The notes under the pieces are model-generated. The model searched no databases. It had not been told where the DNA came from and saw nothing but the letters and a program-made list of their open reading frames with translations. Of a stretch of DNA of 64,000 nt, positions 18,848 through 64,000 are shown in pieces (the stretch's first letter is position 1; the number at the start of each line of letters is the position of its first letter). The DNA comes from an uncultured Candidatus Saccharibacteria bacterium (lineage in GTDB: Bacteria; Patescibacteriota; Minisyncoccia; Phycocordibacterales; UBA6899). The DNA lies in NCBI GenBank assembly GCA_964386905.1, contig CAYLUP010000002.1, positions 64,522 through 128,521 of the forward strand, given 5' to 3'. The translations under genes were made by a program, and so were the position numbers.

Positions 18848-18851
18848 GCAT

Positions 18852-22028: not shown

Positions 22029-22030
22029 AA

Positions 22031-22056
22031 AATGCCGCCATTTGGCGGTTTTTTCT
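22031..22056 (+). terminator. Rho-independent terminator: gccgcc-attt-ggcggt followed by tttttt.
   Basis: GC-rich hairpin and T-run 3 nt after the TAG stop. Confidence 0.6.
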
Positions 22057-22136
22057 TTTCTTTCTATACCCATCTTATACACAGATATTCTATGGTCGAG
22101 GTTGCATAATAATGATAAAATAGATTCACGTTACGC

Positions 22137-23207: not shown

Positions 23208-23210
23208 TAT

Positions 23211-25430: not shown

Positions 25431-25457
25431 ATAAACACGCACGTGTTTATTTTTTTG
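25431..25457 (+). terminator. Rho-independent terminator: aaacac-gcac-gtgttt followed by a T-run.
   Basis: Palindrome plus a T-rich tail immediately after the TAA. Confidence 0.5.
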
Positions 25458-25502
25458 TGCATAACTTCAAAGGCGAAAGAGATTGCATGGTATACTAAGA
25501 GT

Positions 25503-35150: not shown

Positions 35151-35278
35151 TCTCCGACTCGCATCCTTGACCTCCTACATATGCATTATACCATAAATAG
35201 TCCATTTGTCAATATAATCTGTTTGGCTATATTGAGCCATTTTTAGTTTACTGGTATACTGCGAACAACTCCTCGTAG

Positions 35279-35350
35279 TTCAATGGATACGACGCCTCCC
35301 TCCGAAGGAGGAGATGCAGGTTCGATTCCTGCCGAGGGGAGAGAAGGAAA
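35279..35350 (+). tRNA. tRNA-Arg, anticodon CCG.
   Basis: Manual cloverleaf over 72 nt. Acceptor CTCCTCG/CGAGGGG (7 bp with one G-U pair). D-arm GTT...GAC. Anticodon stem CCTCC/GGAGG with loop CTCCGAA, giving anticodon CCG. Variable loop AGAT. T-arm GCAGG-TTCGATT-CCTGC. Discriminator A. CCA is not encoded. Confidence 0.7.
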
Positions 35351-48313: not shown

Positions 48314-51300
48314 ATGACCAAAACCTCGTGGAGGAACTGGTTTTCACGTTGCGTACGCAGGGTATTTTTCTCTTTGCGTGGCTTTTTCGTTGGGGCTCAG
48401 AATCATTCTGTCGTGCGTTTTGGTAGGAGGATTTGGGCACTTTTTCAGCAGTCGTTCCGAATGATTTCGACACAGAAGCGCTCAAAAATGGTGTGGATGT
48501 CTACTGCTGCTTTTGTGATTTTTCTTTCTGCAACAATGACCGTTTTTGCTTTGCGAGCGAAGGCGGAAAAAGAAGTTCACGCCTATATCAGTCCTTCGTA
48601 CGTGACCGGTGAGGGTTTTGAAAGAGTAGAAGCTGCACTTGTTCAGGATTTTTCTGTTGATGCGCGATTTTCTGATTTCACACCAGAATATGTTGCACGT
48701 GTCGCATTTGGCTCCTTTGCACAAACCGTAGAGGAGAGTGTTCAGGAGGAATTGCTTTCAAGCACAACAACGCCATCCGCAACGACGACAGAAAGCACGA
48801 GCGGTGCACCTGCAGATACTGGTGTTGTTCCTGCTGAAACAACGAGTGTTTCTGAGTCTTCGACCGTCCCAGCTTCAGAAGAAAGTTCTTCTGCGCCTTC
48901 TTTGGAAAATCCCATTGAAACAAATGGTGCTCAATCTGCACCAGAAGCACCGTCAACCGAACCGCTTTCATTTTTGCGTAGTATTGTTTCTCCAAAGACT
49001 ATCTTGGCTCAAGAGACACCAGAGAGTGCTCCTGTCTCTGTTGCCGAAGATACTCCTGAATCAACTCTCGTTGTCGAAGGAGTTGAAGCGGTGACTGCGC
49101 CTGTTCAAGATGACAACACTTTTTCGGTGGATGCGACTTCATCAGCAACAATTGTTTCTGATACGGTAAAAGAAGAAAAAGAAAATCGTGATCCATATGC
49201 GATTGCCTCGTGCTCTGTATTTTCTAAACCATGCCACATGGCTGTGTTTGAGGGCTTTGGAGTTGGCACGGAACTTTCTCAGTATCCTGTGAGAAATGCT
49301 GAGGTTGTATTTTCTGTTGCCGCAAAATCACTTCCAACAGAACAACACGATCGCCTTCTTGTCCGCGCGTATAAAAATGGTCGTTGGGTATTTTTGGGTG
49401 AGCATGTCGTTCGTGGTGAGACAGATAACGCATTTCGAGGAGGATATTTACGATTCCCACTTGAATTATCTTCATGGTCAGACTTGTCGGACATGATCGT
49501 AGTTGCTGAATATGTCCGTGAAGGCGAATCTGATTCAACTCTGTTGCTTGATGCTGCATGGGTGGACGTTGGTTTTGAGGCGGCAGAATCACCGGATGAT
49601 CTTGCATTGTTCTCTCCAAATGTAAAAAGCGCGTTGCTTTCTCGCGACGCAGAGCGTCGTGCAAAGGAGCGAGATACGCTTGATGTCGGTGCAGGTGCTG
49701 TTGTGCATTTTGAGAACACTATTTCTGATCTTCCGAGTGCAAAACTCCGCGTGGCAACAACGAAGGAAAAACATGCAGTTTTGGGAACAGGAGAAGAGTA
49801 TGTCGCGGTGACCAATTTTAGTAATGCAACCGAACAGGTGCGTTTGTCCTTTTTCTTCCCAGACGGAAATGGTCGAGTGACCTCACTTTCGAAATATGTT
49901 CATAATGCGCCGGTAAAAAATGTTGAGACAGAGGTGACTCCTATTGCATATGTGTGTGAGTCACCTTGGGTAATAGCATCTTCATCCCTCGACGTATCTT
50001 CAAATGAAGATGTTGGGATTTCTGAGTACACATGTCTGCAGACAGAAGAGAAGCGCTCATGTGCATCGCTTTCGGATGATGCAACAAACTGTTACTCAGA
50101 AGTGACGACAATGACTGACGCAAATGCGACCGTTTTCAGACGCGGGTTTTATGTCGATGCGATCACCGGGGGTCCGTTCTCTGATGAACAGAGCATATTT
50201 GGAAAGGCACTCAGTGCTTTGCTTCTTGATATGCCAGAAGGAATTATTCCATCATCATCTGCTGAGGTGTCTCATAGCCAGACGTACGATATCGAACCCG
50301 GAGCAACAAAGTATTTTAAATTCGCATACAATGTCCCATTAAATGCACGGAGCGATGTGTACATTCAAGCAGTCTCTTCTGGCGGTGCATATGGACTCTC
50401 AAAAATTGTTGCAGATGGATCATGGAACTGGAGGGTCCCTGTGGATGTCGGACTTCCATACGCAACGTTTGGAGAGGAGGCTGTTGTGCCGATTTCTTTG
50501 GATCGTATGCCTCAAGAGTTTTGGACAACGGTACATGAAGATGGCTTAGATATTCGTGTATCTGATGAGCGTGGCGTTGTTGAGCTCCCATCATGGGTAT
50601 CGGAGTTCAATTTTGCGCAACGGAAAGGGCTTGTATGGGTGCGATTGCCACATGGTTCTGGGGTCATGCCTCGCGTCTATCTCTATGCAGGGAACTCTGA
50701 AGCAGCCTCGAAGATGGCTCCAGAAAAACCTTTTCTTTCATCCAGTCTCATTGAGAGGGCCGTTGTGATGTCAGAAGACGAAGAGGTGTCTTCGGTGAAG
50801 ATCACTGCGCTTGCTGATGATACGCGTGTCCGCGTCGGAGATGCTGCGGAAAAGAATCTTGTGTACGGTGAGACTGTTCTTTATGAACATGTTCCTCACG
50901 GTGCACTCGTCTATGCAAATGGTCCAGTTGCTGTCCATGCGCTATCGTTGTCGTCTCGTGCCATTGCATTACCTTTTGGTGTGGCAGGGAACGAGTTCGG
51001 TATTGCGGAGAAGTATGGTGAGTTTTATGTTGCATCGACACGTCCAGAGGAATCAGCGCTTTCTCTTGATCAGAACGAAGAGGTACTTGTCCCATACGGT
51101 CTGACACATTTCTCAGAACACGAAAGTTCTGCTTTTTCGGTACGTCTTCCTTCTGTTGCCGCGTTGTTTGATGAACAAGAAATTCTCCCTCTTCTCTCGA
51201 GGACATCTGACGAGAGGTTGCGTTTTTCTGCTTCTGCTCTGCTCGATCAAAAGGCTGATGCTGTTCGTGCTGTTTGTCCGAATGGGTATGCATACGGCGT

Positions 51301-54300
51301 ATTTGACGTCTCTGGCGCATCTCTTGCAACGACAACTTGTGGAAATATCCTCAATGGTCCATTTGAACACGGCATGCTCCTTCGTGTTCTTCCGACTGTA
51401 GGAAAAACGTCTCCTGGTGCTCTGTTCTCCTACGTACTCCGAGGGAATGAGTATCCTATGCTTCAGTCTGCTGCGCTTTCGCGTGGGACTGCAGGGTTTG
51501 ATCCAGAGGTTGCTTTTGGAGCACCAGAGTTTGTGGTCCCAGGAGAGCATCGCATATTTGATATTGAAGGAGAGAAAGAGCGTGCGCATGTGAGTCGTTT
51601 TCTGAGTAAACAGCGAGAATTTGCTGCTGAAGAAAATCCAACATTCCGTTTTCAATATGTTCCTCAGTCAGGAGGGTTTTTCCGTACTCTCCGCTCTTTG
51701 GTTGGTGCAGCTCCTTTTGCAATTACGAATGTCTCGGTAGAGCAAGCGGGCGCAGTGCTCCCAATCACCCCTGTTGTTTCTTATGGGTCATCTCTTGAGT
51801 GGACGGTGACTATTGACAAGAAAGAAGCAACAAAGATTGTTCCTGGGAAATTACTTCTACGGATGACGATTAAAGAAGGCGGTCAGACCTACGAAGATGT
51901 GTATGATTTTTATTGGGGACTTCTTGCGGTGAATTTCAATAAAGCAACATACGAGCAAGGAGAGATAGCAGACATCTGGTTGGGGGCATTGTCAGAAACA
52001 GGAAACACTGTCTGTGATGCAAAACTCAAAATCTTCATCACTGATACTGCGAGTTCGACTGTTGAAGTTCCCGTAGTGCAGTCGGGAAAGTGTGATGGTA
52101 ATTCCGTTGTTGATGTTCCGGATTATTCCGCGTCATATCCCGTAGTTGATGTTGGCGTCCATTCTGTGCGCGTATTGCGTCTTGATGAACAAGATAATGT
52201 TATTGCAGAAGTGCGAAGTCACTTTAATGCCGTGTCCCGTTCTCCTTTTGTCATTGAGAGAAAGGGCCCAACGCGTATTAATCCGACCGCTCCCTACAGC
52301 ATGACGCTTCGCGTATTTGCACGTGAAGCTTATGAGGGGCAAATTGTTGAGCAGATTCCTGCTGATTTTGAGGTACTTGAAAGAGGTGGATCGACGTTGC
52401 GCTGGAAGGACGATTCTCAACAAATTAAAGAAGCGGTATGGTCTGTCAAGATGAAAGCTGGGGAAATCTATCAGTTTACCTATACGTTTGATGCTGCTGA
52501 CAAATCGCCGTACATCTATTTCCTCGGCCCTGCTCGTATTGGTGATACAGATTCGTTGTATATTGAGCCTCGTGAGTGGCAAATTGCATCTGACGTCGCA
52601 GGAAACATGCTCATCTACTGGGATGGTGGAACGACTCCACCAGGGTGGACATGTGTATCGTGTCTCGGCACTGATCCGTTCTATCAACGGTACCCAATGG
52701 GATCATCAACTCCGAGCATTAATGGTGGCGCAACAACACATACCCATACGTTTACGACATCGGTCAGTTCTGCGATTTACTCAACGTCAATTTTGGTGAA
52801 TACGGGAATTCCAGCAACATTGGTGTATAAGGACCACACACATGCGTTTACTCCGACATTTGCCACAGGCTCAAATCTTCCACCATCCATGTCTTTGCGC
52901 ATCTTGCGAGCGAACGCAGTGGGTGATGTTCCTATTCCGCAAAATGCAATTGTGATGTTTGAATCTACTCCTCCGTCTGGATGGACAACATATAGTACGT
53001 TGGATGGAAATTTCCCATATGGTGATTCTGGTATTTTCAATACGCAAGGAAGTGCGACTCATAGCCATGCACTTTCTGGCACACTTGGTACATATAGTGG
53101 AGGTTCGCTCTATCGCAGTACAACTTTTGGAATATACCCGAAGGTTGCGAATACTACTCACGGACATGCAGTCACAGCAACATCAACGAACACAATTTCA
53201 AATGACCCTCCATACGTGACATACATGCTCGGAAAAGCAAGCGCTGCAGGGGCACTTCCAAATGGAGCGATTACGATGTGGGATAACGACCCTGCTTCTG
53301 GATGGGTGCATTTGTCTGTCGATGGTGCGGTAATGAGTAATCGTTTTGTGAAGGCGATGAGTTCTGCAGGTGCAACGGGAGGGTTATCACATCACGAGCA
53401 TACAGATACGACCAATATCCCAACTGGAGCATCGAATTCAAATACAAGTTCTGCATCACTTTCTGGATCTTTTGGATCAAATCCAAATCATACACATACT
53501 GTTGACTATACCCTCTTTTCTGATGCAGTTACCCTTCCTCCATATCGTACGGTTGTCTTTGCAAAAAGAAGTGTTGGCGTGCCAGAATTTACACAAACAG
53601 CTTTCCGGTTTTACGATAATGTAAATGACCCACTTCCAGTTGATCCATGGCCAGCTGGTGCTGTAGATGTTGCAGAAGGGATGTCTATTGAAGATGTTGC
53701 TTATCGCATTAAGCCTGGTTCGACATTCAGACTTCGCGTCTCTGCACAAATCTCTAATGCAACAGCAACTGCAAGCACAACACCACTCAAACTTCAGTAT
53801 TCTACTGATGGGGCATGTTCTACTGCGCTCAACTGGAATGATGTTGGTACTCCTGGCGGCTCAGCTCCGCTTCGTGGATACGATAATACTCTTGTGTCAC
53901 AAGGCACTCAGTTGGCTAGTGTTGTATTGGCTTCAAGCACTTTGTCATCGGTGCAGTTCTATAGTGAATCTTCGTCAGCACAAGCATTCACACAGGATGC
54001 AGGAATTGGGACATATGCTGAGTTCGATTGGGTCTTGCAGGCAGGAACAAGTCTTGCATCATCTTCTCGATATTGTTTGCGTATGGTTGAGGGGAGTGGA
54101 AAAGTTTTCGGTCAATACAGCGCATTTCCAAGTTTTCTCTCAAATAGCGCGCCAATTGCTCCCGTGCTTCAGACACAATTTAATCATGCGAAGATCCTGA
54201 CGTTAACTCCGACGTTGACATTTGCAGCCTCGGATGAGGAGGGGAACCCAATGCACTATGCGATTGAAATTGACGATGATCCAAATTTTGGATCACCAGT

Positions 54301-57300
54301 CGTCTCGCATTCGACAACAAATAACTCAGCATATTTCAGCAACCTGACAACGCTAAGTAACAAAGCACCATATAACAACGCAGATACAATTCAGTACACT
54401 GTGCAGAATGGTGCGCTTGCGAATAATACAACGTATTGGTGGAGGGTTCGTGCGATGGATCCTACAGGCAGTACACAGTATGGGTTGTGGTCTAGCGCAC
54501 GTGCTTTTACAACGGACACTTCTCTCGCGACGTCGGCATGGTTCCAGACAACAGATGCACAGTTTGTACAAAATACGCTCGAGAATATTACTATTTCAGG
54601 AAATGCTGCACGGCTGACAGGGGGTCAAACCTCTGGCACGATGTATTCTCCTTCGATCGTCTTTAATGCGGGTCCAATGGGAACCGTATGGGGGAGTTTG
54701 CTCTTTACCGATGATGGGGGAGCTGGAATTACATACCAAGTTGAATACCAGGATGAGCAGCAGAACTGGGTTCTTATTCCAGACACTGCGTTATCTGGAA
54801 ATTCGACTGGGTTCGGAAGTTCCCCTGTGTCTCTTACAAGTGTTGACCCACAGTTTTATCCAGCAATTCGCCTGCGTGCAAATTTCACAAATAGTGGAAC
54901 GCCAGTACTTTCTGATTGGGGCGTGAATTGGGCATACAAAACACTTGCTCCAATCCTTTCATCACCATTCAATCATGCAAAGGTGAGTACAACTACACCA
55001 GCATTACTCTTTGCATCGACAGATCCATTGAATCGTCCAGTAACATACGAGGTACAGTACTCAACAGACCCGACATTTACCACTTCAACGACCTGTAATA
55101 GCGACTCTTCGTGTACTGCAGGTTTTAAGAATATTGATACCCCAGCAGACACTTCTCCGTTTACATCTGCAGAACGCGTCGAGTTTACCTTCCAAACTCC
55201 ACTAACAAATGGAACGACGTATTTTTACCGTGTTCGTGGATACGGCTTTGGAAGCGGGGCTTGGTCATTCTGGTCTGAAGTACGTGCATTCACTGTAGAT
55301 ACGGCAGCGACGACATACCCAACGTGGTTCCAAACGATGAAGGGACAATGGGATGCTGATACACTTTCTGGAACGTATGCAAACCCTTCTCATAGCGTCG
55401 CTGTTGCAACGACAAGTGATCGCGTGCTGGTGGTATATGGGGACGGCTCCAATAGTAGGCCGAAGTACCGATTTTACGAAAATGGTGTACTCGGCACGGC
55501 AAAGGAGATGCTTTCCATTAACTCGACTGTGCTTTGGGCGGTAGCACGACCCTCACTTGTTAATGACCAGTTTGTGGTTGGAACAATGGGGGCTGACCGT
55601 GATGTGCGATTTCAGGTGTTTGAAAATGGCATTTGGTCACGACTCTTTACTCTGACCGATACATCACCTTCCGACAAGAGGCGAAGTTTTGATGTTGCGT
55701 ATGAATCGCAAAGTGGTCGTGCAGTGGCTGTTGCTTGCAGTGGCACAGATGCAGTCTATGCAATATTTGACGGTTCTACCTGGGGAAGTGTACAGAATCT
55801 CGATTTACCTTTTACAACAAACTGCGAACTGGTAAAGATGGCTTCAAGCCCAACACAGAATCAGATTATTGCGCTCTTCCGCAACACTGGTTCAACATTT
55901 CGTGCAGAGGTATGGAATGGAACTCAGTGGGATAATGGTTCCGCAATGAGTTTCAGCGCTTCCGCACAGATTCAAGAGCCAGCGCACGATGGTATGGCGA
56001 TTGAGTATGAACGAACGAGTGGGAAGGCAGTTGCGGTTGTATCAAATAACACGACGAGAGGATTTCGATATCGTGTATGGAGTGGAAACAACTGGGGTAC
56101 AGAGACCGCGTATGCGCTTCTCGGGGGAAACGATGGAAATAGAACAAATGCGCAATTCGAATGGGGAAATTTGAGACGCAGTCCAACAAGTAATGATTTG
56201 ATGCTTTGTGGCATCTCACAGTATTCTCCGACAGATGATGGTGCATATACGGAATTTGTTCGATGGAATGCAGTAACACCAGCATGGGAGCCAACAACGG
56301 CTTCAAAACTTGGTGAATACTGGCCATATTCTCGCCATGCGCAATCAAATGATTGTGTTTATGAAACGAAATCAGGACGTGCAAACAAACTCGTATATGT
56401 TGCTGATGAATCATGGCAGGTTGCTGACGGAAGTGCCTCATACAATAGAACTATATTTGACGTACTTTCTAATACGACAAATATGGCAAGCGCTTGGCAA
56501 TCTGGAGCATCATATACTACTCGAATTTGGTCTACGTATGCTGCATATCGATGGTATGCGGGAGAGACATGGACATCACGTCTTGAACGAGCATCGTACT
56601 CTGGAGATATTTTAGGGATTTCCTTAATGCGAAATTCTTTGAGCTATATTTTCCGTATGTGGAATGGTTCTGCCTGGTCTTCCGCAATTACGATGGGTGC
56701 ATCTTCTGTAACGACAAAGCCGTATGGTCAGCCGTATGACATGTCTGCGCAGCAAGGACTAACCCAAGGAAAAGTATTTTCATCTCCAATCGTTTTTGCA
56801 GATGGAAATGGTCCTTCATGGAGACAGGCCCGCTTTACCACGACACGACCTGTTGGGACAACGGCATTGATTTCTGTTGAATATGAATCGTCTCCTGGGA
56901 ATTGGGAACGAGTTCCAGATGCGGTTATTCCTGGAAACTCAACAGGAACATCAACAAGCCCGATTGATTTATCTGGCTTGAACTCTTCCGTCTACAGTGT
57001 GATTCGCCTCCGTGCGGATTTAACCTGTAATGGTTTTGCTACATGTCCAACTCTTGATGACTGGACAGTGGAGTGGGCGGCGGGTCTTAATATTTCTGGT
57101 ATTGCACGAGACAATGATCGTACGACTGCACTTACGAGTGGTACGGTAAAGGTCGCCGTAAACGGTGTTGAGCAGGTTGGAAAAACAGGGGCAATTTCTG
57201 GAACAGGAACATGGACAATTTCTGGCGTGAACTACAAGAATGGAGAGACTGTTACTGTGTGGATCGACAATCCAGGAGTAGCAAATCGCGCTGTTTCTGT

Positions 57301-60300
57301 TGTAAAGTATGCTGGTGCCGGAAATCTCTCAAATGTGGAGTTGTCACGACGCTGGCTCACGATTGGTGATTCGGGACAGGCTGGACAAACAATCACAAAT
57401 GCAGATCTGAAGCTGTTTGATAATTATAATGAATCATTAGCCCAAACACGTGCGGACATCTTCTTTAATGTCGACGGTTCAGACAATCTTACTGCATGTG
57501 CAAGTGCACCGTGTAGTGATGCGTCTATCGTCGTGGCAACAGGAACAACCTGGAGGCCGAAAGCATCAGGAACAAGTGTAAGTACACTTTCTTCTCTTGT
57601 ATTAAATGGAGAGGTGACAGCTGATGCAAATACGATAAAGATTGGAGGTGATTGGAGGAATACAGGAACATTTACCCCTGGAACATCTGTTGTGATTTTT
57701 ACTGCAACCTCAAGTACACGAATACTCAATAATACAGGTGCTGCACAATACAAATTTTACTCAGTGACATTCGGAGAGGGTTCGTCTTCAGCGACATGGC
57801 AATTGCAATCACCGCTGTACACGAATGGAGATCTTGTGGTGAATTATGGTACGCTTTCTCCGCTTTCACAGCCTATTTCGATTGAGAAGAGTTTATCTCT
57901 TGGTTCGAACGGGGTATTCCTAAAGGGGACAGCAACAACAACATTCCTTGGAACTGCTGTTGCGACATGGTCTGACTTGACTGCTCTGCAGCAAGACATG
58001 GGAAATGTGCTTGTTGATGGTTCGCCAAAGACACTTACCCTAAGTACCCCCGCAAAAGCAACCTCACTCACCATTGCAGATGGAGATACGTTTGCATTTG
58101 GAGTGAACACGTTAACACTTTCTTCGCACTTCACAAATAATGGATATATTAATTCCGGTTCGGGGCGCCTCTCTATTGCCGCATCTGGAACAGCTAATGT
58201 GAAGCAGGGCGGACAGACGTTGAATAATGTGACACTTGCAAGCGGGACAGTGACTTGGATTGATGCACATGCAACAACCACGGGTGATCTCTTGATCTCG
58301 GGTGGGGCAGTAAACCTGCCGGCACAATCACTCGCGGTGGGAGGAAGCTTCTTGCACACGGCTGGATCTTTCGCAGCTCCGCTGACAACGCGCATGACAT
58401 CGAATGTATCAGGAAAGCAGCTTTCTCTTCTGTCGTCACTTCAGACTCTTGAGTTTGTTGGCACTGGAGCCTGGTCATTTATCTCATCAGCAACCACAAC
58501 TGGGACAACGAGTATCCAGTCTGGGTCTGTGACACTCCCTTCTGGCATACTCGCCGTTGGAGGAAATCTCGTCGTGTCTCCAACTGCGACATTGCAATCA
58601 AATACTGGGACAGTCAGAATGTATGGAGCATCTGCGACCATACAGCTCAACGGAAAACAGCTCTCATCTCTTGTTGTGGCATCTGGGTCTTCGGCGGCAC
58701 TACAAGATGCGACGGCGACATTCCTCGGGTCTCTTACTGTTGATGCTTCTGGCGTGTTTACTCCCGCATCAAGCAGCACCTTGACCATTGGCGGTTCGTT
58801 AATAAATAATGGATCATTTATTGCAAATGCATCTCATGTCATTATGAATCGTGCAGCAGGTCCTGCGACTCTGAGTATTGGTTCATCCATGTTGAGCAAG
58901 TTGACTATCTCTGGTGCGGGAAGTTTCAGTATTATAGGAAATACTCGCGTGACATCCGATTTCGCATTAGGAAATGTAGGAGCCTTTAGTATGGAGAGCG
59001 GACGCGAGTTACGAGTTGATGGGTTTTATACAACAACTGCACAACAGGCAAATACAACATGGACGGGGTCTACGCTGCGTTTGACTTCTGGCGCAACCAT
59101 GAGTGCAAACACAAAAACAACAGGTGGGGATAGTTACGGAAGTATCATTCTGGATGAAAATACTCAATTACGTTTATGGAACTCTGATGCAGTATCAATA
59201 ACAACGAATGCGGGAAGTAGCGTGTATGCGCAAAACTGGGCAAACGTATCGGGAGCGCTTCGCATTTATGGAACCTATACTCAGCAATCAGGTACTGCAT
59301 GGTGGAGTTATGCAACTGATTTTGATGGCACAGCACTTCCATCTGGAAGTGAGCGAACTGCTACTGTCGCCATTGCGCCAGGATCATCTGTCGCTTTTGC
59401 AACATCATCCGCTCTTGCTGTGATTGGAGATGCTGGCGCGTCAACCACAGTGGCAACGATTGGTGTAGGAAATTATGCTATGAGTTTTGCTTCGTCTACA
59501 CTCTCTGCCCAATTTGCAACATTCAGTGGTATGAATACCTCTGGACTCTCGTTGTCTGGTGCAACAAATATTGCAGTATTGAGCGATGTGTCGTTTACAA
59601 CTGATATTAATGCGGGAAATATCATGACGTTTACAGCGGATGTTGTAAACGCGAATGCAGGAGAACAGTATTATCGCGTCGGCTTTGACAGATCTTCTCT
59701 TTCTGCGACAAACATCCGTGTTTTGTCAGCAACAACGCAATCTCTTCGTTTTAAACAGCATTATGGAAATATTGACGGGGAATCATTTGACAATGATCCA
59801 ACGGGGAATCCAGGAGAAATTCGATGGGATGATTCAAATTATCTCATCACGATTTCAGGTACCGTTTATAGTGACGCAGGTGTCACGCCAATGGATGCTT
59901 CTGTTTGCGATGGAGCAACCCCAGCAGTAACGATAAAAGTTTCTGGTGGTGGATCTTTCACTGGTCCATGTGATGTTGGTGGGACATTTAGTATCCCTAA
60001 TGTCTCCTTTACTGGAGAAACAACGATGTCTATCTTCCTGGATGACACTGGTGCGCAGGCAGTAACGGTAACACGAGGCGCGTCTGTTGATTTGTCGGGA
60101 ATCCGGCTCTATCAAAATCGTGTCATTCTTCGTCATGAAGACGTGACCCCAATGACTATCGCAGCATTGTCTGATTTTGACGTGGATGATGATAGCGACA
60201 TGATCTTTACTGCAAATGGAGGTACTCTGTCTGTTCCAGGTACGGCTGAGCTTTGGGTTTGGAGTGGAAAAACATTCACTCCTGGGGGAAACGTGACAAC

Positions 60301-63300
60301 GGCAGCTGGTGGAACTATTGGATATGGTGGTGCGTTTCACTTAGACAATAGTGCCACTTATACCGCATCTTCTGGTGAAATTATCACCATAGGTGGACGA
60401 TTCCAAATGGATTCAAGCGCAATACTGAATGCTGCATCATCAACTTTTGTCTTTAATCCATCAGATACACGAACATTGACTGCAACCGCCCCAATTGTGT
60501 TCCATAATCTAGAGAAGACTGGCGTTGGAACACTAACCGTGAGTTCGACAATGGCAATCGGTGGTACATTCACGATTACAATGGGAACATTGTCTGGTGT
60601 TGGGAGTATTACTGCACAACAAGGGATAGTGGGAGATGGAACTGTATCTCTTACAGGGGGGACAGTGACGCTTCCCAATGGTGGATTCTTTGGTGGAAAT
60701 ACTGCCTGGACAGTCAATAATTTGGTTCTTGGAGATACGGGTACTTCTACAACCATAAAGACTGGAGCCGGGACAACGACAGTACGAGCATTACTCACAG
60801 TGAGGAGTCAACACAGTCTTGATCTCAATGCAACGCCCTTGGTGTTTACTGGATCAAATACTGTCCTGTCTGTTCTGGGATCTATTGATACTACCGGTGC
60901 AACCATTACTTATGCGCCAACAGGAACAGTGAGTGTTGCAAATATTCCGTATACCAATCTTTCTTTCATGGGAACAGGAACAAGCACCTTGCCTGCTATG
61001 CAGTTGCAGGTTGCTGGAAATATGACTATTGGAGGCGGAGCATCAACCCCAAAAGTGACAGCTCTGGTCAATGACCCAACAATTACCGTTGGCGGAAACA
61101 TTTCCATTGCCTCTGGCGCTCGATTTACTGCATCTGATGTTGGAACACTATTTGTTTCCGGGAGCTGGACAAATGCAGGAGTCTTTACACACTCACTTGG
61201 CTCTGTTCAGTTCACTGGGGGTGGAGTTAAGACAGTGAATCCAGGGTCCTCTCCGTTCGGGAATATTTCCTTCGCAGACGATCTTGGCTCATGGACTATT
61301 TTGGAAAATGCTACTGCTACAAATATGGTTATTGCGTCAACCTCTGCATTTACCATGGCAAGCGGGAGAACTTTGGAAATTACAGGAAGTTTCAGTAACG
61401 CTGTTGGTGGCACTGCGACAACATGGACTGGTGCAACGCTGTTTGTGAATAGTGGAACACGTTCGGAAATAAATACAAAGACTGCAGGTGCTGATACGTA
61501 TGATATTGTTCGTGTTGGGGCTAATACACAGACAGTGTTCTGGAACTCATCATCAACGCAGTTTGTTGCACAGCCTACTGGTGGTGCACTTTCTCTGAAT
61601 CACGCAGGAATCGCTGGTGATGCCTATGTGTTTGGTGATTACACTCGAAGCACGGGCACAGAGTATTGGAGTTATTACAAGGATTTTGATGGAGCAGTCT
61701 TAAATGCGGGTGACTTACGAGCTCCACGGATTCGATTCGCACCATCTTCTACAGCATCATTTGTTGGTACAAGTGCGATTGAACTTGTTGGTGTTGCTTC
61801 TGCAACAACAACTGTTGAGGCGCTCTCAGGGTCCTACGGATTGAATTTTGGTGGGGCAACATCAACACTTCAGTTTGTAGATTTCTCTGGCATGAATGCA
61901 ACAGGCATTCAGTTTACTGGTTCTGGAAAAGTGACACAGTTTGATGATATTGTGCTTCGAAACCCTTCTGGGGTTGGGACAATGGTGTCTCTTGCAGCCT
62001 CTGTCATTACGGCAAATCCACTTCGTACAACGTATCGCAATGCATTCATTGCACCAGGCGGAACAAATATTTCTGTGACTGGAACAACAACATCCGCTTG
62101 GCGTATTCGCAACCACTACGGTGGGAGAGATGGTGAAGCGTTTGATGGTGATCCTGCAGGAGATCCGGGATATGTTATTTGGGATGATTCTGCTGCACAG
62201 ATTTATATTTCTGGAAAAGTACTCCAAAGTGATGGTGTAACAGTGTCGTCTGCGTGTAATGGTGTTTCTCAGTATGTTGCATTAAAAGTGCAAGGGTCTG
62301 GAACATTGACGTCTGCATGTAGTGCTGTTGATGGGAGTTACTCAATCGGTCCGATTGTATATGCTCCGTATGACACTCTTGCTGTATACACTACAGCTGC
62401 AAGCGGGGTTCAGGCGGTTTCATATGCATACCGTCCGATGACGAATATTGGTGATTATGATTTGTACGAACGTACGATTATCCTTCGAAATGAACAAGAT
62501 GCGATTACCAATGCCGGCATAAACTCCTATGATAAAGATAATGACGCAAATATCCCGGTACGGGTGACGGGGAGTGCGCTCGTTACAGATACAAATTCGA
62601 AAGTCATCGTCTGGGATGGAAAGAAATACCAGCCACAAGGATCAGTCACTGTAGGAAGCAACATGAATGCTTCCTCTATCGACGGAGACGTTGAACTGCG
62701 TACGCAGGCATCTTGGATAACTGGTGCTGGGGAACAATACACCATTGGAGGAGACCTTGTTGTTCTTTCACAAGGCCAGGTTCTTGGTATGTCGGGAGAA
62801 TTCATCTTTACTTCGGCTGTTGCCGGGAAATCAGTGTCAGCGCTTTCTTCTACAACGTTGCCGTCACTTCGCTTTAATGGTACGGGGAGCTGGTCTCTGT
62901 CTGGTTTCGCATCAACCACTGGGACACTTCTCGTTTCTCAGGGAACCGTAGCGCTCCCGGCAAGCACCTTCGGTATTGGTGGGAGTTTCACTAATCAGGG
63001 TACTGTACAATCAAATAACGGAACACTATTCTTTGAGGCAACAACAACAGGGAATCAGATTCGCACAAATGGGAGCACATTTGGAACGCTTCTATTTACG
63101 GGAGTGGGCTCATGGGAGTTTATGGATTCCGCAACCACGACTGGGGCATTCACTGTTGCGTCTGGTACCGTGAAGCTTCCGGCAGGATCGTTATCTGTTG
63201 GTCTCGACTTCGAGAATACTGGAGGTTCGTTTATCGCAAACGGTGGTACGGTCATTGTGCGTGGAGCTGGCACACGGAAGGTCGCTCCGGGCGGGTCAGC

Positions 63301-64000
63301 TTTCCACACACTTCGAGTTGAAAATGGGGATTATGTACTTGGTGTACAGCATGCAACATCGACTGGCGATGTGACTGTTGCTTCGGGTTCACTTGAATTA
63401 CCAACGGAGCGATTCGCTGTTGGGGGTTCATTCAGAAATTCGGGAACCTTTATTGCAGGCGCTTCGTCGACTGTAATCATGAATGCGACATCAACAGGGA
63501 AGATTATAAACCCAGGAACATCATCATTTACCCATGTCATTGTTCAGGGTCCTGGGGGTGGATTCACGTTGGAGTCTAGTGCGACAAGTACGGGGGCATT
63601 TGAAATAAAAACAGCAAATGCATTCGTTGTCTCGCCATCGGTTCGATTGGTGGTTCGTGAGCAGTTCTTGAATGCTGTTGGTGGTACGTGGACCGGGTCT
63701 ACGCTCAGATTAGAGAAGGTGGGAACATCAACCATAAACCTGAAGACAGACCCGGGTGCGGCATATAATACTGTTGAGCTTGGTCCTGGTGCACAGGTTC
63801 GCTCGTGGAAGTCATCTTATGGAACCGTAAACTTCGCATCGTCTTCTGCAATCTATTCACAGAATGACAATAACGTAAATGGCGCACTTCGTATCTATGG
63901 AGAGTATCGCAATACTGCGACAACAGACCACTGGTCCGCAACAACTGACTTTGATGGCTCCGCAGTCGCATCTCGTGCAGCCTCTGTCCGATTTGCATCT
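48314..64000 (+). CDS. Giant cell-surface protein gene, 3'-partial. It has at least 5229 codons in the window and is absent from the ORF track because it has no in-window stop.
   Basis: Frame open from TAG at 48287-48289 to the window end; the ATG-to-stop track lists no frame-2 ORF anywhere in 48.3-64 kb. I checked about 12 kb of lines by hand at 48314-53580, 56641, 58981, 60301, 62221 and 62461-62580. Start is uncertain: the first ATG is at 48314, and candidates 48461 or 48488 precede the signal/TM MVWMSTAAFVIFLSATMTVFAL. The product has an acidic S/T/P-rich linker, Cys-containing domains, three phage-tail-collar-like HxH modules, Fn3-like pairs (FNHAK...YWWRVRA), W-rich propeller-like repeats, prealbumin-like domains (ISGTVYSDAGV...), beta-helix-like T/G/S-rich repeats and ~2.3-kb super-repeats. 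The small ORFs listed on both strands here are overlap shadows of this frame. Confidence 0.75.
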   Translation, partial: MTKTSWRNWFSRCVRRVFFSLRGFFVGAQNHSVVRFGRRIWALFQQSFRMISTQKRSKMVWMSTAAFVIFLSATMTVFALRAKAEKEVHAYISPSYVTGEGFERVEAALVQDFSVDARFSDFTPEYVARVAFGSFAQTVEESVQEELLSSTTTPSATTTESTSGAPADTGVVPAETTSVSESSTVPASEESSSAPSLENPIETNGAQSAPEAPSTEPLSFLRSIVSPKTILAQETPESAPVSVAEDTPESTLVVEGVEAVTAPVQDDNTFSVDATSSATIVSDTVKEEKENRDPYAIASCSVFSKPCHMAVFEGFGVGTELSQYPVRNAEVVFSVAAKSLPTEQHDRLLVRAYKNGRWVFLGEHVVRGETDNAFRGGYLRFPLELSSWSDLSDMIVVAEYVREGESDSTLLLDAAWVDVGFEAAESPDDLALFSPNVKSALLSRDAERRAKERDTLDVGAGAVVHFENTISDLPSAKLRVATTKEKHAVLGTGEEYVAVTNFSNATEQVRLSFFFPDGNGRVTSLSKYVHNAPVKNVETEVTPIAYVCESPWVIASSSLDVSSNEDVGISEYTCLQTEEKRSCASLSDDATNCYSEVTTMTDANATVFRRGFYVDAITGGPFSDEQSIFGKALSALLLDMPEGIIPSSSAEVSHSQTYDIEPGATKYFKFAYNVPLNARSDVYIQAVSSGGAYGLSKIVADGSWNWRVPVDVGLPYATFGEEAVVPISLDRMPQEFWTTVHEDGLDIRVSDERGVVELPSWVSEFNFAQRKGLVWVRLPHGSGVMPRVYLYAGNSEAASKMAPEKPFLSSSLIERAVVMSEDEEVSSVKITALADDTRVRVGDAAEKNLVYGETVLYEHVPHGALVYANGPVAVHALSLSSRAIALPFGVAGNEFGIAEKYGEFYVASTRPEESALSLDQNEEVLVPYGLTHFSEHESSAFSVRLPSVAALFDEQEILPLLSRTSDERLRFSASALLDQKADAVRAVCPNGYAYGVFDVSGASLATTTCGNILNGPFEHGMLLRVLPTVGKTSPGALFSYVLRGNEYPMLQSAALSRGTAGFDPEVAFGAPEFVVPGEHRIFDIEGEKERAHVSRFLSKQREFAAEENPTFRFQYVPQSGGFFRTLRSLVGAAPFAITNVSVEQAGAVLPITPVVSYGSSLEWTVTIDKKEATKIVPGKLLLRMTIKEGGQTYEDVYDFYWGLLAVNFNKATYEQGEIADIWLGALSETGNTVCDAKLKIFITDTASSTVEVPVVQSGKCDGNSVVDVPDYSASYPVVDVGVHSVRVLRLDEQDNVIAEVRSHFNAVSRSPFVIERKGPTRINPTAPYSMTLRVFAREAYEGQIVEQIPADFEVLERGGSTLRWKDDSQQIKEAVWSVKMKAGEIYQFTYTFDAADKSPYIYFLGPARIGDTDSLYIEPREWQIASDVAGNMLIYWDGGTTPPGWTCVSCLGTDPFYQRYPMGSSTPSINGGATTHTHTFTTSVSSAIYSTSILVNTGIPATLVYKDHTHAFTPTFATGSNLPPSMSLRILRANAVGDVPIPQNAIVMFESTPPSGWTTYSTLDGNFPYGDSGIFNTQGSATHSHALSGTLGTYSGGSLYRSTTFGIYPKVANTTHGHAVTATSTNTISNDPPYVTYMLGKASAAGALPNGAITMWDNDPASGWVHLSVDGAVMSNRFVKAMSSAGATGGLSHHEHTDTTNIPTGASNSNTSSASLSGSFGSNPNHTHTVDYTLFSDAVTLPPYRTVVFAKRSVGVPEFTQTAFRFYDNVNDPLPVDPWPAGAVDVAEGMSIEDVAYRIKPGSTFRLRVSAQISNATATASTTPLKLQYSTDGACSTALNWNDVGTPGGSAPLRGYDNTLVSQGTQLASVVLASSTLSSVQFYSESSSAQAFTQDAGIGTYAEFDWVLQAGTSLASSSRYCLRMVEGSGKVFGQYSAFPSFLSNSAPIAPVLQTQFNHAKILTLTPTLTFAASDEEGNPMHYAIEIDDDPNFGSPVVSHSTTNNSAYFSNLTTLSNKAPYNNADTIQYTVQNGALANNTTYWWRVRAMDPTGSTQYGLWSSARAFTTDTSLATSAWFQTTDAQFVQNTLENITISGNAARLTGGQTSGTMYSPSIVFNAGPMGTVWGSLLFTDDGGAGITYQVEYQDEQQNWVLIPDTALSGNSTGFGSSPVSLTSVDPQFYPAIRLRANFTNSGTPVLSDWGVNWAYKTLAPILSSPFNHAKVSTTTPALLFASTDPLNRPVTYEVQYSTDPTFTTSTTCNSDSSCTAGFKNIDTPADTSPFTSAERVEFTFQTPLTNGTTYFYRVRGYGFGSGAWSFWSEVRAFTVDTAATTYPTWFQTMKGQWDADTLSGTYANPSHSVAVATTSDRVLVVYGDGSNSRPKYRFYENGVLGTAKEMLSINSTVLWAVARPSLVNDQFVVGTMGADRDVRFQVFENGIWSRLFTLTDTSPSDKRRSFDVAYESQSGRAVAVACSGTDAVYAIFDGSTWGSVQNLDLPFTTNCELVKMASSPTQNQIIALFRNTGSTFRAEVWNGTQWDNGSAMSFSASAQIQEPAHDGMAIEYERTSGKAVAVVSNNTTRGFRYRVWSGNNWGTETAYALLGGNDGNRTNAQFEWGNLRRSPTSNDLMLCGISQYSPTDDGAYTEFVRWNAVTPAWEPTTASKLGEYWPYSRHAQSNDCVYETKSGRANKLVYVADESWQVADGSASYNRTIFDVLSNTTNMASAWQSGASYTTRIWSTYAAYRWYAGETWTSRLERASYSGDILGISLMRNSLSYIFRMWNGSAWSSAITMGASSVTTKPYGQPYDMSAQQGLTQGKVFSSPIVFADGNGPSWRQARFTTTRPVGTTALISVEYESSPGNWERVPDAVIPGNSTGTSTSPIDLSGLNSSVYSVIRLRADLTCNGFATCPTLDDWTVEWAAGLNISGIARDNDRTTALTSGTVKVAVNGVEQVGKTGAISGTGTWTISGVNYKNGETVTVWIDNPGVANRAVSVVKYAGAGNLSNVELSRRWLTIGDSGQAGQTITNADLKLFDNYNESLAQTRADIFFNVDGSDNLTACASAPCSDASIVVATGTTWRPKASGTSVSTLSSLVLNGEVTADANTIKIGGDWRNTGTFTPGTSVVIFTATSSTRILNNTGAAQYKFYSVTFGEGSSSATWQLQSPLYTNGDLVVNYGTLSPLSQPISIEKSLSLGSNGVFLKGTATTTFLGTAVATWSDLTALQQDMGNVLVDGSPKTLTLSTPAKATSLTIADGDTFAFGVNTLTLSSHFTNNGYINSGSGRLSIAASGTANVKQGGQTLNNVTLASGTVTWIDAHATTTGDLLISGGAVNLPAQSLAVGGSFLHTAGSFAAPLTTRMTSNVSGKQLSLLSSLQTLEFVGTGAWSFISSATTTGTTSIQSGSVTLPSGILAVGGNLVVSPTATLQSNTGTVRMYGASATIQLNGKQLSSLVVASGSSAALQDATATFLGSLTVDASGVFTPASSSTLTIGGSLINNGSFIANASHVIMNRAAGPATLSIGSSMLSKLTISGAGSFSIIGNTRVTSDFALGNVGAFSMESGRELRVDGFYTTTAQQANTTWTGSTLRLTSGATMSANTKTTGGDSYGSIILDENTQLRLWNSDAVSITTNAGSSVYAQNWANVSGALRIYGTYTQQSGTAWWSYATDFDGTALPSGSERTATVAIAPGSSVAFATSSALAVIGDAGASTTVATIGVGNYAMSFASSTLSAQFATFSGMNTSGLSLSGATNIAVLSDVSFTTDINAGNIMTFTADVVNANAGEQYYRVGFDRSSLSATNIRVLSATTQSLRFKQHYGNIDGESFDNDPTGNPGEIRWDDSNYLITISGTVYSDAGVTPMDASVCDGATPAVTIKVSGGGSFTGPCDVGGTFSIPNVSFTGETTMSIFLDDTGAQAVTVTRGASVDLSGIRLYQNRVILRHEDVTPMTIAALSDFDVDDDSDMIFTANGGTLSVPGTAELWVWSGKTFTPGGNVTTAAGGTIGYGGAFHLDNSATYTASSGEIITIGGRFQMDSSAILNAASSTFVFNPSDTRTLTATAPIVFHNLEKTGVGTLTVSSTMAIGGTFTITMGTLSGVGSITAQQGIVGDGTVSLTGGTVTLPNGGFFGGNTAWTVNNLVLGDTGTSTTIKTGAGTTTVRALLTVRSQHSLDLNATPLVFTGSNTVLSVLGSIDTTGATITYAPTGTVSVANIPYTNLSFMGTGTSTLPAMQLQVAGNMTIGGGASTPKVTALVNDPTITVGGNISIASGARFTASDVGTLFVSGSWTNAGVFTHSLGSVQFTGGGVKTVNPGSSPFGNISFADDLGSWTILENATATNMVIASTSAFTMASGRTLEITGSFSNAVGGTATTWTGATLFVNSGTRSEINTKTAGADTYDIVRVGANTQTVFWNSSSTQFVAQPTGGALSLNHAGIAGDAYVFGDYTRSTGTEYWSYYKDFDGAVLNAGDLRAPRIRFAPSSTASFVGTSAIELVGVASATTTVEALSGSYGLNFGGATSTLQFVDFSGMNATGIQFTGSGKVTQFDDIVLRNPSGVGTMVSLAASVITANPLRTTYRNAFIAPGGTNISVTGTTTSAWRIRNHYGGRDGEAFDGDPAGDPGYVIWDDSAAQIYISGKVLQSDGVTVSSACNGVSQYVALKVQGSGTLTSACSAVDGSYSIGPIVYAPYDTLAVYTTAASGVQAVSYAYRPMTNIGDYDLYERTIILRNEQDAITNAGINSYDKDNDANIPVRVTGSALVTDTNSKVIVWDGKKYQPQGSVTVGSNMNASSIDGDVELRTQASWITGAGEQYTIGGDLVVLSQGQVLGMSGEFIFTSAVAGKSVSALSSTTLPSLRFNGTGSWSLSGFASTTGTLLVSQGTVALPASTFGIGGSFTNQGTVQSNNGTLFFEATTTGNQIRTNGSTFGTLLFTGVGSWEFMDSATTTGAFTVASGTVKLPAGSLSVGLDFENTGGSFIANGGTVIVRGAGTRKVAPGGSAFHTLRVENGDYVLGVQHATSTGDVTVASGSLELPTERFAVGGSFRNSGTFIAGASSTVIMNATSTGKIINPGTSSFTHVIVQGPGGGFTLESSATSTGAFEIKTANAFVVSPSVRLVVREQFLNAVGGTWTGSTLRLEKVGTSTINLKTDPGAAYNTVELGPGAQVRSWKSSYGTVNFASSSAIYSQNDNNVNGALRIYGEYRNTATTDHWSATTDFDGSAVASRAASVRFAS
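52600..53580 (+). other. Triple phage tail-collar-like (MdpB-type) module inside the giant CDS.
   Basis: Three consecutive ~95-aa units: IYWDGGTTPPGWTCVSCLGTDPFYQRYPMGSSTPSINGGATTHTHTF; IVMFESTPPSGWTTYSTLDGNFPYGDSGIFNTQGSATHSHAL; ITMWDNDPASGWVHLSVDGAVMSNRFVKAMSSAGATGGLSHHEHTD. A trailing NPNHTHTVDY follows. The pattern (hydrophobic-x-W/F ... PxGW ... G ... G ... HxH) is that of phage tail collar domains. Confidence 0.5.
59050..61420 (+). repeat. Super-repeat copy A (~2.37 kb, ~790 aa) within the giant CDS.
   Basis: Ordered markers TWTGSTLRLTSGATMSANTKTTGGDSYG ... DFDGTALPSGSERTATVAIAPGSS ... SAQFATFSGMNTSGLSLSGATN ... HYGNIDGESFDNDPTGNPGEIRWDDSNYLITISGTVYSDAGV recur in the same order in copy B. 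Confidence 0.6.
61420..63690 (+). repeat. Super-repeat copy B (~2.27 kb) within the giant CDS.
   Basis: TWTGATLFVNSGTRSEINTKTAGADTYD ... DFDGAVLNAGDLRAPRIRFAPSST ... TLQFVDFSGMNATGIQFTGSGK ... HYGGRDGEAFDGDPAGDPGYVIWDDSAAQIYISGKVLQSDGV. Each marker is collinear with copy A at a ~2.3-2.4-kb offset. The DNA has diverged while the protein shows moderate identity. Confidence 0.6.
63690..64000 (+). repeat. Super-repeat copy C (start only; continues beyond the window).
   Basis: TWTGSTLRLEKVGTSTINLKTDPGAAYN ... YGEYRNTATTDHWSATTDFDGSAVASRAASVRFAS repeats the opening markers of copies A and B. Confidence 0.5.

Follow-up and report, generated by a model that had tools for sequence, protein, structure and literature searches.

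The window (the whole stretch of DNA that was analysed, 64,000 nt) ends within a giant gene. From nt 48290 to the end of the window, frame +2 stays open (5,237 codons); its first ATG is at nt 48314, and the amino acids of the giant protein are numbered here from nt 48290. Since the frame is free of stops up to nt 64000, the gene continues off the window, as the initial annotation had stated. Judged by sequence, the protein is an orthologue of proteins of 5,200 to 7,700 aa encoded in metagenome-assembled genomes (MAGs) of Paceibacteria/Parcubacteria, and it is collinear with full-length orthologues from aa 250 to aa 5237. The bacterium itself is assigned to the Paceibacteria/Parcubacteria within the Patescibacteria (CPR). 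The full-length protein is predicted to have about 6,150 aa, with a stop near nt 66.8 kb. A Kyte-Doolittle scan found only one strongly hydrophobic segment (Table 1), and a single N-terminal segment of this kind was present in 4 of the 5 orthologues checked in the same way. The segment is predicted to be an N-terminal signal anchor; the remainder of the protein would therefore be extracellular. Ser and Thr make up 23% of the protein, and its cysteines come in close pairs. Minus-strand ORFs within the repeat region (e.g., 59855-60340) were without support and were attributed to frame shadowing by the giant ORF. A search of Rfam gave one tRNA only, distant from the repeat region.

Table 1. Features of the giant gene within the window, in order along the sequence
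Feature	Position (nt)	Strand	Evidence
Giant ORF	48314..64000	+	>5,229 codons; stop-free up to window end
Sole strongly hydrophobic segment (MVWMSTAAFVIFLSATMTVFALRA)	48488..48559	+	Kyte-Doolittle scan of window protein
N-proximal DUF2341 domain	50540..50713	+	Pfam PF10102, 29.9 bits vs cut-off 23.4
Degenerate first transthyretin-like domain (TTR-0), array start in natural phase	57137..57436	+	TTR profile 29 bits, iE 2e-8
Beta-helix shaft, repeat 1	57515..59026	+	helixN hits 57515-57781, 57743-58291, 58274-59026 (218 bits)
Core module 1 (TWTGSTL ... WSYATDFDG ... HYGNIDGESFDNDPTGNPGEIRWDDS)	59036..59851	+	core profile 306 bits
Transthyretin-like domain 1 (ISGTVYSD...), Cys pair aa 3873/3894	59852..60217	+	TTR profile 128 bits
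Beta-helix shaft, repeat 2	60218..61393	+	helixC 60218-60487 (92 bits), helixN 60692-61393 (139 bits)
Core module 2	61397..62203	+	core profile 302 bits
Transthyretin-like domain 2, Cys pair aa 4656/4677	62207..62563	+	TTR profile 110 bits
Beta-helix shaft, repeat 3	62570..63667	+	helixC 62570-62836 (72 bits), helixN 62915-63667 (227 bits)
Core module 3	63671..64000	+	core profile 111 bits, hmm positions 2-117

Three collinear copies of a long unit (U1, U2, and U3; about 755 to 790 aa each) lie in this one open frame. Self-BLASTP of the protein, done piecewise with pieces of about 300 aa, aligned U1 with U2 at an offset of +788 aa (E down to 1e-59; 32 to 38% identity), U2 with U3 at +757 aa, and U1 with U3 at about +1545 aa. 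The protein identity between the units was 33 to 37%. The Smith-Waterman score of U1 against U2 was 886, versus a mean of 98 (sd 13) for shuffled sequences (z = 60); the scores for U1/U3 and U2/U3 were 501 (z = 36) and 297 (z = 17), respectively. The proposed threefold occurrence of a very long, divergent unit is therefore real. Two details of the initial annotation need correction: the repeat periods are 2,364 and 2,265 to 2,271 nt, and the array begins near 57.1 kb and not at nt 59050. U1 as delimited by BLAST starts at nt 58241, while nt 57137 to 59026 hold a beta-helix preceded by a first, degenerate domain of transthyretin-like (TTR-like) type. The peptides used as markers of the unit recur at the positions reported, with TWTG[SA]TL at nt 59057, 61421, and 63686, DFDG at nt 59318, 61682, and 63947, NTKT.. 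at nt 59108 and 61472, and F..FSGMN at nt 59513 and 61874. The HYG...WDDS and ISG.V..DGV motifs, for which the consensus strings had been written slightly incorrectly, were found in U1 and U2, and their third copies would fall past the end of the window.

The phase and the boundaries of the unit were set against 52 orthologues that retain the C-terminal stop. In its natural order, the unit opens with a transthyretin-like sandwich (about 120 aa), continues with a three-stranded beta-helix (about 17 to 18 coils, some 390 aa in all), and closes with a beta module of about 270 aa that is conserved, has the pattern TWTG...DFDG...GE..D.DP.G.PG.IRWDDS, and is here called the core module. The third core module is cut by the end of the window, with 110 of about 271 residues present. 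The TTR profile was built from 97 orthologous units and used in hmmsearch; an equally weak first copy of the domain was found in all orthologues. Among the 97 units, the Cys columns of the TTR-like domain were 99 to 100% conserved. Charged residues were also highly conserved, namely, DFDG, R372, and GE..D.D, together with RHE/D..D.D after the TTR-like domain. These residues could form a catalytic or a Ca2+-binding site rather than plain scaffolding.

We then examined the predicted structure of the unit. The AF2 model of U1 (pLDDT 91, pTM 0.76) shows an all-beta fold, and according to DSSP, it has three short strands per coil of 21 to 22 residues at residues 1 to 265 and 657 to 787, with sandwich domains between. 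The core module modeled together with the TTR-like domain gave a pLDDT of 85.5. In Foldseek, the domain of about 100 aa matched the DUF3823 structure 4yok with a probability of 1.00 (rmsd of 3.8 Å over 102 columns), followed by 4fxt (0.97), 3mn8 (0.77), and 3qva (0.72); the E-values were weak (0.05 to 0.4), and the assignment is at the fold level only. The ISG.VY..G domain (about 120 aa) is thus modeled with a transthyretin/prealbumin-like fold, like that of DUF3823 (4yok and 4fxt), the carboxypeptidase D regulatory domain (3mn8), and HIUase (3qva). Membership of these CarboxypepD_reg-like families was not seen at the sequence level, Pfam giving nothing at E<=5 apart from a sub-threshold Enas match. 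The same held for the repeat unit and its single modules, which had no match in Pfam or NCBIfam even at E<=5, barring sub-threshold Enas. A sequence profile search of the PDB with the unit returned only a chance antibody match (E of 0.07). Foldseek matches of the unit to beta-helix proteins were weak (TM-scores of 0.1 to 0.26), the best whole-unit match in the PDB being Ag43 (7koh; E of 4.5e-3, probability of 0.77, TM-score of 0.20 to 0.26, 12% identity). Seven matches were found in BFVD at E<=1e-3; for phage tailspike and tail-fibre proteins, the TM-scores were 0.1 to 0.2, with an rmsd of about 20 Å or more. The composition of the unit that had been read from the letters, beta-helix-like coils plus a prealbumin-like domain, is supported by the U1 model and the 4yok match.

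The best match to U1 in the initial protein-database search was 39% identical. A scan of genome contigs with U3 gave no relative, which places the source genome outside the GTDB representatives. Of the 1.84 billion representatives covered by a protein search, 341 matched at E<=1e-3. Patescibacteria MAGs contained 75 related loci, with ORFs of 5.4 to 6.5k aa to which the window protein is collinear. At 52% identity, P0022 (6,106 aa) is the closest relative and has the same architecture. Because the 3' end of the window gene lies outside the window, its copy number and its C-terminal tail are deduced from the orthologues. Exactly three core modules and three TTR-like modules were present in all 23 fully closed orthologous ORFs and in 51 of the 52 ORFs with a C-terminal stop; in the sole exception, a module was split or partly deleted. 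In all orthologues, the third unit ends at profile positions 534 to 541, just past the third WDDS motif, and a non-repeat tail of 749 to 767 aa follows, so that the earlier placement of the repeats as the C-terminal part of the protein is not supported. This tail opens with a second DUF2341 domain (51 and 65 bits). Its strong conservation across divergent lineages is unlike what is expected for a host-specific adhesin and fits a structural or mechanical role at least equally.

When each of 150 units was compared with those of other proteins, its nearest neighbor occupied the same position in 148 cases, and a neighbor-joining tree grouped the units by position (41 of 50 first, 50 of 50 second, and 39 of 50 third units). 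Identity between the units is 60 to 74% in a few lineages. Since the units cluster by position across genomes, the triplication is ancient; the copy number is fixed at three across the orthologues. The mean pairwise identity among orthologues was 51% in the tail and 48 to 51% between units at the same position, and it dropped to 26% over the N-terminal 600 aa. Going by these alignments, the protein is least conserved next to the membrane and most conserved in its three units and, as the orthologues indicate, in a head of about 760 aa.

In 51 of 55 relatives, the gene is directly followed by genes for an fn3 protein, a MacB-like ABC ATPase, and an FtsX permease, with the fn3 gene starting at about +107 nt; a cohesin-domain protein often precedes it. 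Both the window gene and that of the closest relative are uncoupled from this cluster. The context in the window is one of chromosomal housekeeping genes (MreB, RRF, and RseP), and the upstream genes (MreB, HolB-like, RRF, and RseP) had no matches in the orthologue loci, this neighborhood not being conserved. No small immunity-like gene downstream was conserved in the relatives.

We consider it fairly probable that the giant protein is an N-terminally anchored, extracellular, all-beta protein whose ancient, fixed threefold repeat forms a rigid shaft projecting a head for contact. We infer its extracellular location, its role as a spacer, and its function in contact from the features described above. 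The single N-terminal hydrophobic segment would hold the protein in the membrane, and the three units, stacked on one another, would give a rigid shaft with a defined length, to which the regular beta-helix would contribute about 8 to 9 nm per unit, with the core modules additional. The shaft would carry the C-terminal head led by DUF2341 away from the cell surface, so that it may reach another cell or surface. The extended fibre of the initial annotation is kept as the most reasonable reading.

Alternatively, the protein could be a structural part of the envelope of the cell that makes it and not bind other cells at all; it would then resemble an S-layer or serve, in concert with the MacB-type ABC system, as a scaffold or fixed spacer. 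The very strict conservation of the architecture and the tail length across divergent lineages is consistent with such a role, as is the cohesin/fn3/MacB/FtsX neighborhood of most relatives. However, the family is small, the gene is uncoupled from the MacB cluster in the window and in the closest relative, and Pfam detected no SLH or other wall-binding domain in the giant protein. We regard this role as unlikely. The units could also be enzymatic beta-helix modules, such as a polysaccharide lyase or a tailspike-like depolymerase, that degrade the envelope of a host or prey, a proposal that we find distinctly improbable. The Foldseek lists do include tailspikes (Sf6, HK620, and CBA120), a PL3 pectate lyase, and a rhamnogalacturonan lyase, and acidic, His, and Arg residues are near-invariant in the core module and after the TTR-like domain. 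Yet the beta-helix matches have low probabilities (mostly <0.25; 0.77 for Ag43 7koh_D) and TM-scores of 0.1 to 0.25, the match to the rhamnogalacturonan lyase is confined to about 100 columns, those of its transthyretin-like accessory domain, and no lyase or hydrolase family was matched in Pfam or NCBIfam at E<=5, nor any such sequence in the PDB.

The initial annotation had further suggested that units can be gained or lost, which would make the stalk variable in length, and that the true copy number may have been underestimated through assembly collapse. Long-period repeats of surface proteins often gain or lose units, and the more similar units of a few lineages would suit this view; moreover, three related MAGs have a contig break within the repeats, so that each carries the gene on two contigs (L022/L049, L023/L073, and L062/L077). 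In the window, however, the codon-aligned nucleotide identity between units was 42 to 47%, the longest exact word common to them was 11 to 13 nt, and blastn between them gave essentially no match, so neither assembly collapse nor unit gain and loss is supported. The constant count of three, shared by the closest relative, and the orthology of the units by position likewise contradict a variable stalk, which we judge very improbable. The protein differs in the same respects from variable-copy adhesins such as those of the Bap/Esp/SiiE/LapA type, in having no near-identical DNA repeats and a constant copy number. Hardly any credence can be given to a FhaB/CdiA-like filament delivering a polymorphic C-terminal toxin: the protein is giant and beta-helical, and FhaB domains have been reported in other giant Patescibacteria proteins (PMC11809585), but neither the window protein nor an orthologue (L006) matched a two-partner-secretion, FhaB, or haemagglutinin family in Pfam (nor FhaB or haemagglutinin in NCBIfam), the tail is conserved in length and sequence, and a conserved fn3 gene lies downstream in place of an immunity-like gene.

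The giant protein can be compared with several known systems. A literature search found no description of this specific family and only general reports of giant Patescibacteria proteins. Giant proteins (>4,000 aa) of Patescibacteria with DUF2341 and/or FhaB have been proposed to be extracellular and to act in adhesion or host interaction (PMC11809585), and the present protein belongs to this class by its phylum, its length of >4,000 aa, and at least one Pfam DUF2341 domain. In the study of Patescibacterium danicum, the giant proteins were without full-length homologues, and rapid domain reshuffling was suggested (PMC11809585); in contrast, the orthologues found here that are collinear over the full length number in the dozens and keep one fixed architecture. 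By description, the protein also resembles Giant1-5 of Apilactobacillus kunkeei, very large extracellular proteins (PMC12863079) of 3,000 to 8,000 aa at the surface of a bacterium with a small genome, which belongs to a different phylum. As modeled, the three-stranded beta-helical rod would be an extended surface structure like the adhesins Ag43 (7koh) and SRRP (5ny0). Unlike in Ag43-type autotransporters, the predicted anchor is N-terminal, and no C-terminal barrel was found in the orthologues, the Pfam domains being DUF2341 and Ig-like in L006 and only DUF2341 in the tail of P0022. In general descriptions of the phylum, an outer membrane is said to be absent. The modeled combination of an elongated beta-helix with small beta-sandwich domains is also seen in phage tailspike and tail-fibre proteins, from which the protein differs in its chromosomal context of housekeeping genes.

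It is conceivable, if rather doubtful, that the shaft and the head, together in most relatives with the cohesin, fn3, MacB, and FtsX proteins, form an undescribed surface apparatus of Paceibacteria whose defined length sets the distance to the host envelope or engages it mechanically; the 790-aa unit would then be a new structural domain family, with conserved acidic motifs that bind Ca2+ or a host glycan. Most large surface proteins of Patescibacteria are unannotated, and the host attachment of these ultrasmall bacteria is poorly understood. What was an anonymous repeat is now a defined, conserved architecture, with boundaries set by profiles, a structure modeled with confidence, and neighboring genes that are conserved as well; it is represented by about 340 protein clusters and by 75 or more genome loci. 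A false lead has also been removed, the repeats being no hotspot of length variation or assembly error. The unit is a candidate new domain family for databases, and work by cryo-ET, proteomics, or binding assays now has a concrete target in the giant protein.

An open frame on the plus strand (frame +2) ran from nt 48290 to the window end, comprising 5,237 codons with the first ATG at nt 48314; amino acids of this giant protein were counted from nt 48290. Since a whole-protein self-BLAST culls contained hits, query pieces of 300 aa were used. Collinear similarity was found at an offset of +788 aa between the first and second units (U1 and U2; aa 3468-4135 versus 4257-4906, E down to 1e-59), +757 aa between U2 and the third unit, U3 (aa 4269-4484 versus 5026-5236), and +1545 aa between U1 and U3. 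The three-way alignment was collinear from end to end, and unit-unit Smith-Waterman scores were 17 to 60 standard deviations above those of 100 shuffles. The marker TWTG[SA]TL occurred at nt 59057, 61421, and 63686, and DFDG at nt 59318, 61682, and 63947. The initial annotation was therefore correct in placing three long collinear units and their markers here, and protein self-alignment gave the repeat periods as 2,364 and about 2,268 nt. A weak additional transthyretin-like (TTR) domain and a beta-helix stretch lay ahead of the first core (the 270-aa TWTG...WDDS module), as they did before unit 1 in every orthologous protein. The natural phase is thus TTR-like domain, beta-helix, and core, repeated three times; the three-fold array stood, with its start moved about 2 kb upstream of the proposed nt 59050, to near nt 57.1 kb. 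Upstream of the array, further internal duplications of the giant ORF spanned nt 54155-57079 (aa 1956-2097 versus 2219-2359, 38% identity, fn3/Ig-like by weak Pfam matches; aa 2112-2215 versus 2823-2930, 40% identity); aa 1439-1649 and 1552-1759 were also duplicated, with 28% identity.

Repeat units, partner cluster, and other features in the window
Feature	Position (nt)	Strand	Remark
Extra TTR-like domain	57137-57436		weak
Beta-helix stretch before first core	57515-59026		
U1, working limits	58241-60601	+	aa 3318-4104
U2, working limits	60602-62875	+	aa 4105-4862
U3, working limits	62876-64000	+	aa 4863-5237; cut by window end
fn3 protein	14335-15816		
MacB-like ABC ATPase	17510-18847		
FtsX/MacB_PCD permease	18852-20060		
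626-aa protein	20148-22028		last ~250 aa resemble extreme C terminus of the giant's orthologues
356-aa protein			within cluster, between 626-aa and dockerin proteins
Dockerin protein	23211-24431		
Further piece listed with cluster	25443-27125		weak cohesin-protein homologue, about 27% identity, no Pfam match
Further piece listed with cluster	28164-28847		
1,398-aa ORF	44-4240	+	no Pfam match
430-aa ORF	12174-13466		no Pfam match
tRNA-Arg (CCG)	35269-35340	+	

The repeat unit had no Pfam or NCBIfam match. The whole protein gave one DUF2341 match near the N terminus (29.9 bits) and otherwise only sub-threshold Ig/fn3-like matches. A word-indexed search with U1 against 5.8 billion proteins returned just 21 relatives (33-42% identity), including fragments with Kaiserbacteria and Minisyncoccia labels. 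When GTDB representative genomes were scanned with a pattern from a small alignment, 111 matches in 75 loci were confirmed, nearly all named as Patescibacteria (Paceibacteria/Parcubacteria, Kaiser-, Adler-, Lloyd-, and Nomurabacteria, and automatic "Saccharibacteria" labels). When 1.84 billion cluster representatives were searched exhaustively by HMMER with a core-plus-TTR profile, 341 proteins matched at E<=1e-3, 142 of them at E<=1e-30, and full-length members had 5,300-7,700 aa. Judged from these searches, this is a small, specific family. The genes upstream of the giant encode MreB, a DNA polymerase III delta'-like protein, ribosome recycling factor, and an RseP-type M50 protease, indicating a bacterial chromosome. 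A domain of about 190 aa (31-39% identity) was common to the 1,398-aa ORF (aa 860-1055), the giant (aa 1765-1958), and all orthologues; this ORF may encode a second, smaller surface protein of the same system.

The giant protein was collinear, from about aa 250 up to the window end, with complete ORFs of 5,400-6,500 aa in the related loci (30-47% identity). Sub-module profiles (the core, the TTR domain, and two beta-helix parts, helixN and helixC) were built from 150 aligned units. According to the profile counts, exactly three cores and three TTR domains were present in each of the 23 ORFs with both ends closed and in 51 of 52 ORFs with a C-terminal stop; where ORFs departed from this count, a module was split by an insertion or partly deleted. 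In 49/49 proteins with three clean unit matches, the third unit ended right after WDDS, at profile position 534-541, and was followed by a tail of 749-767 aa (median, 756), opened by DUF2341 (51.4 bits in the protein of locus L006; 65.3 bits in P0022). P0022, the closest relative (6,106 aa), was 52% identical to the window protein; all 1,919 residues compared were collinear, as was its N terminus, and it had the same layout, with a 767-aa tail. By alignment to P0022, the window gene would run for about 924 more codons to a stop near nt 66.8 kb, giving a protein of about 6,150 aa.

Unit identities were computed over profile positions 160-530. Between proteins, mean identity was 48-51% for units at matching positions and 42-43% for units at different positions; between the units of one protein it was 44-46%. 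Of the 150 units, 148 had as their nearest neighbour in another protein a unit from the same position. A neighbour-joining tree placed all 50 second units within one clade of 51, 39 of 50 third units in one pure clade, and 41 of 50 first units inside one 43-member split. Because units group by position across proteins, the triplication is older than the split of these lineages. Two units of the same protein paired in the tree at loci L018 (second and third) and L020 (first and third), and units were 60-74% identical in several lineages, which suggests occasional gene conversion or slower divergence. Within-protein identities of 57-74% at L018, L020, L013, L063, L034, and L046, together with the two pairings, hint that gene conversion has acted between the units of some lineages. 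The window units were the most divergent of the 50 proteins (33-37% identity).

At the DNA level, the window units had a codon-aligned identity of 42-47% and a longest common exact word of 11-13 nt, and blastn (word size 7) found one 32-nt match only. Such units would not be seen as repeats by assemblers or the recombination machinery, and the collapse suspected earlier was not supported for this gene. The giant gene was broken over two contigs inside the repeat region in three related MAGs (L022/L049, L023/L073, and L062/L077), where units may be more similar or coverage low. Assembly does fail within the repeat region in some genomes, although the window's units are too divergent for that. 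A stalk whose length varies by unit gain or loss is likewise disfavoured for this gene, given the lack of DNA-level repetition and the three copies in nearly all ORFs with a stop.

An AlphaFold2 model of U1 from a 20-sequence alignment was all-beta (pLDDT, 91; pTM, 0.76). In residues 1-265 and 657-787 of the model there were three short strands per 21-22 residues, as expected of a three-sided beta-helix, making about 12 plus 5.5 coils; from general beta-helix geometry (0.48 nm per coil), the regular shaft is estimated at about 8-9 nm per unit. Residues 266-656 formed beta domains with longer strands. Foldseek found nothing in the PDB for this model at E<=1e-3; the best whole-unit match was the Ag43 beta-helix (E, 4.5e-3; TM, 0.20-0.26), and phage tailspikes and fibres were among the matches, with low probability. 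A separate model of core plus TTR (pLDDT, 85.5) matched transthyretin-like accessory domains over about 100 residues. The top match was DUF3823 (4yok; probability, 1.00; rmsd, 3.8 A), and others were 4fxt, the carboxypeptidase D regulatory domain, a rhamnogalacturonan lyase domain, and HIUase; the core matched beta-helix proteins only, with low probability. The beta-helix-like repeats and prealbumin-like domain initially assigned to each unit thus found support at the fold level, while the modules belonged to no sequence family in Pfam, NCBIfam, or PDB sequences. Across 150 units, 72 positions were >=90% conserved, including W..T.L, N.K, Y, W.S, YS, G.L...G, W.Y..DFDG, R, G...GE..D.D.....G.....DS, a Cys pair in the TTR domain, and Y......RHE......I......D...D.D after it.

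Strong hydrophobicity was confined to one segment of the window protein, aa 67-90, and a single N-terminal hydrophobic segment was also found in four of five complete orthologues checked. Cysteines occurred in close pairs, Ser plus Thr made up 23% of residues, and no C-terminal anchor or sorting motif was visible in orthologue tails. Based on these features, the giant is probably an N-terminally anchored extracellular protein. Mean identity among orthologues rose from 26% in the first 600 residues to 40% between aa 600 and 1600, reaching about 50% in the units and 51% in the tail; conservation thus goes up with distance from the anchor.

In the 55 relatives whose downstream DNA was long enough, the giant's stop was followed after about 107 nt by the start of an fn3-rich protein gene (51/55) and next by a MacB-like ABC ATPase (48/55); then came an FtsX/MacB permease, a 626-aa protein, a 356-aa protein, and a dockerin protein. 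An upstream gene often encoded a cohesin-domain membrane protein (PF00963, 30.9 bits); in 18 loci (e.g., L007:1237-2763), the preceding gene encoded a cohesin protein of about 508 aa with a C-terminal membrane segment. In the window, the partner cluster kept this gene order (nt 14335-24431), with two dockerin-bearing proteins close to the weak cohesin-protein homologue. The cohesin and dockerin proteins suggest a cohesin-dockerin-type surface assembly. The giant's start was 24-34 kb downstream of this cluster, and a tRNA and housekeeping genes separated the two; on the P0022 contig, the gene downstream of the giant was Y-family-polymerase-like and on the opposite strand. The giant gene is evidently uncoupled from its usual partners in the sub-lineage of the window and P0022. 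No RNA gene other than the tRNA-Arg was detected in the window. AT skew was strongly negative (-0.25) over nt 12001-14000, which holds the 430-aa ORF, and GC skew was unusually high (0.23) in the adjoining 10-12 kb.

Taken together, the results give good support to a three-fold super-repeat that is ancient and fixed; within a conserved giant surface protein, it builds a long beta-solenoid segment in which sandwich domains are regularly spaced. Surface proteins that are giant, repetitive, and beta-rich are a known kind, in which internal repeats are expected; what is new is a 790-aa unit that lacks a database family, has a confident predicted fold, and is strictly conserved in three copies across many lineages. 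No description of this unit family was found in the searchable literature. For other giant DUF2341/FhaB proteins of Patescibacteria, adhesion or host interaction has been proposed, with stress on the absence of full-length homologues and possible domain shuffling (PMC11809585); the present giant is the opposite, having collinear full-length orthologues and a fixed architecture. An enzymatic role for the conserved core is possible, as is a purely structural envelope role for the giant, and a CDI-like toxin filament is disfavoured. Given the fixed copy number, positional orthology, all-beta fibre-like fold, N-terminal anchor, and conservation gradient, the best-fitting reading is that the three-fold repeat would act as a rigid spacer of set length, presenting a conserved, DUF2341-led head.
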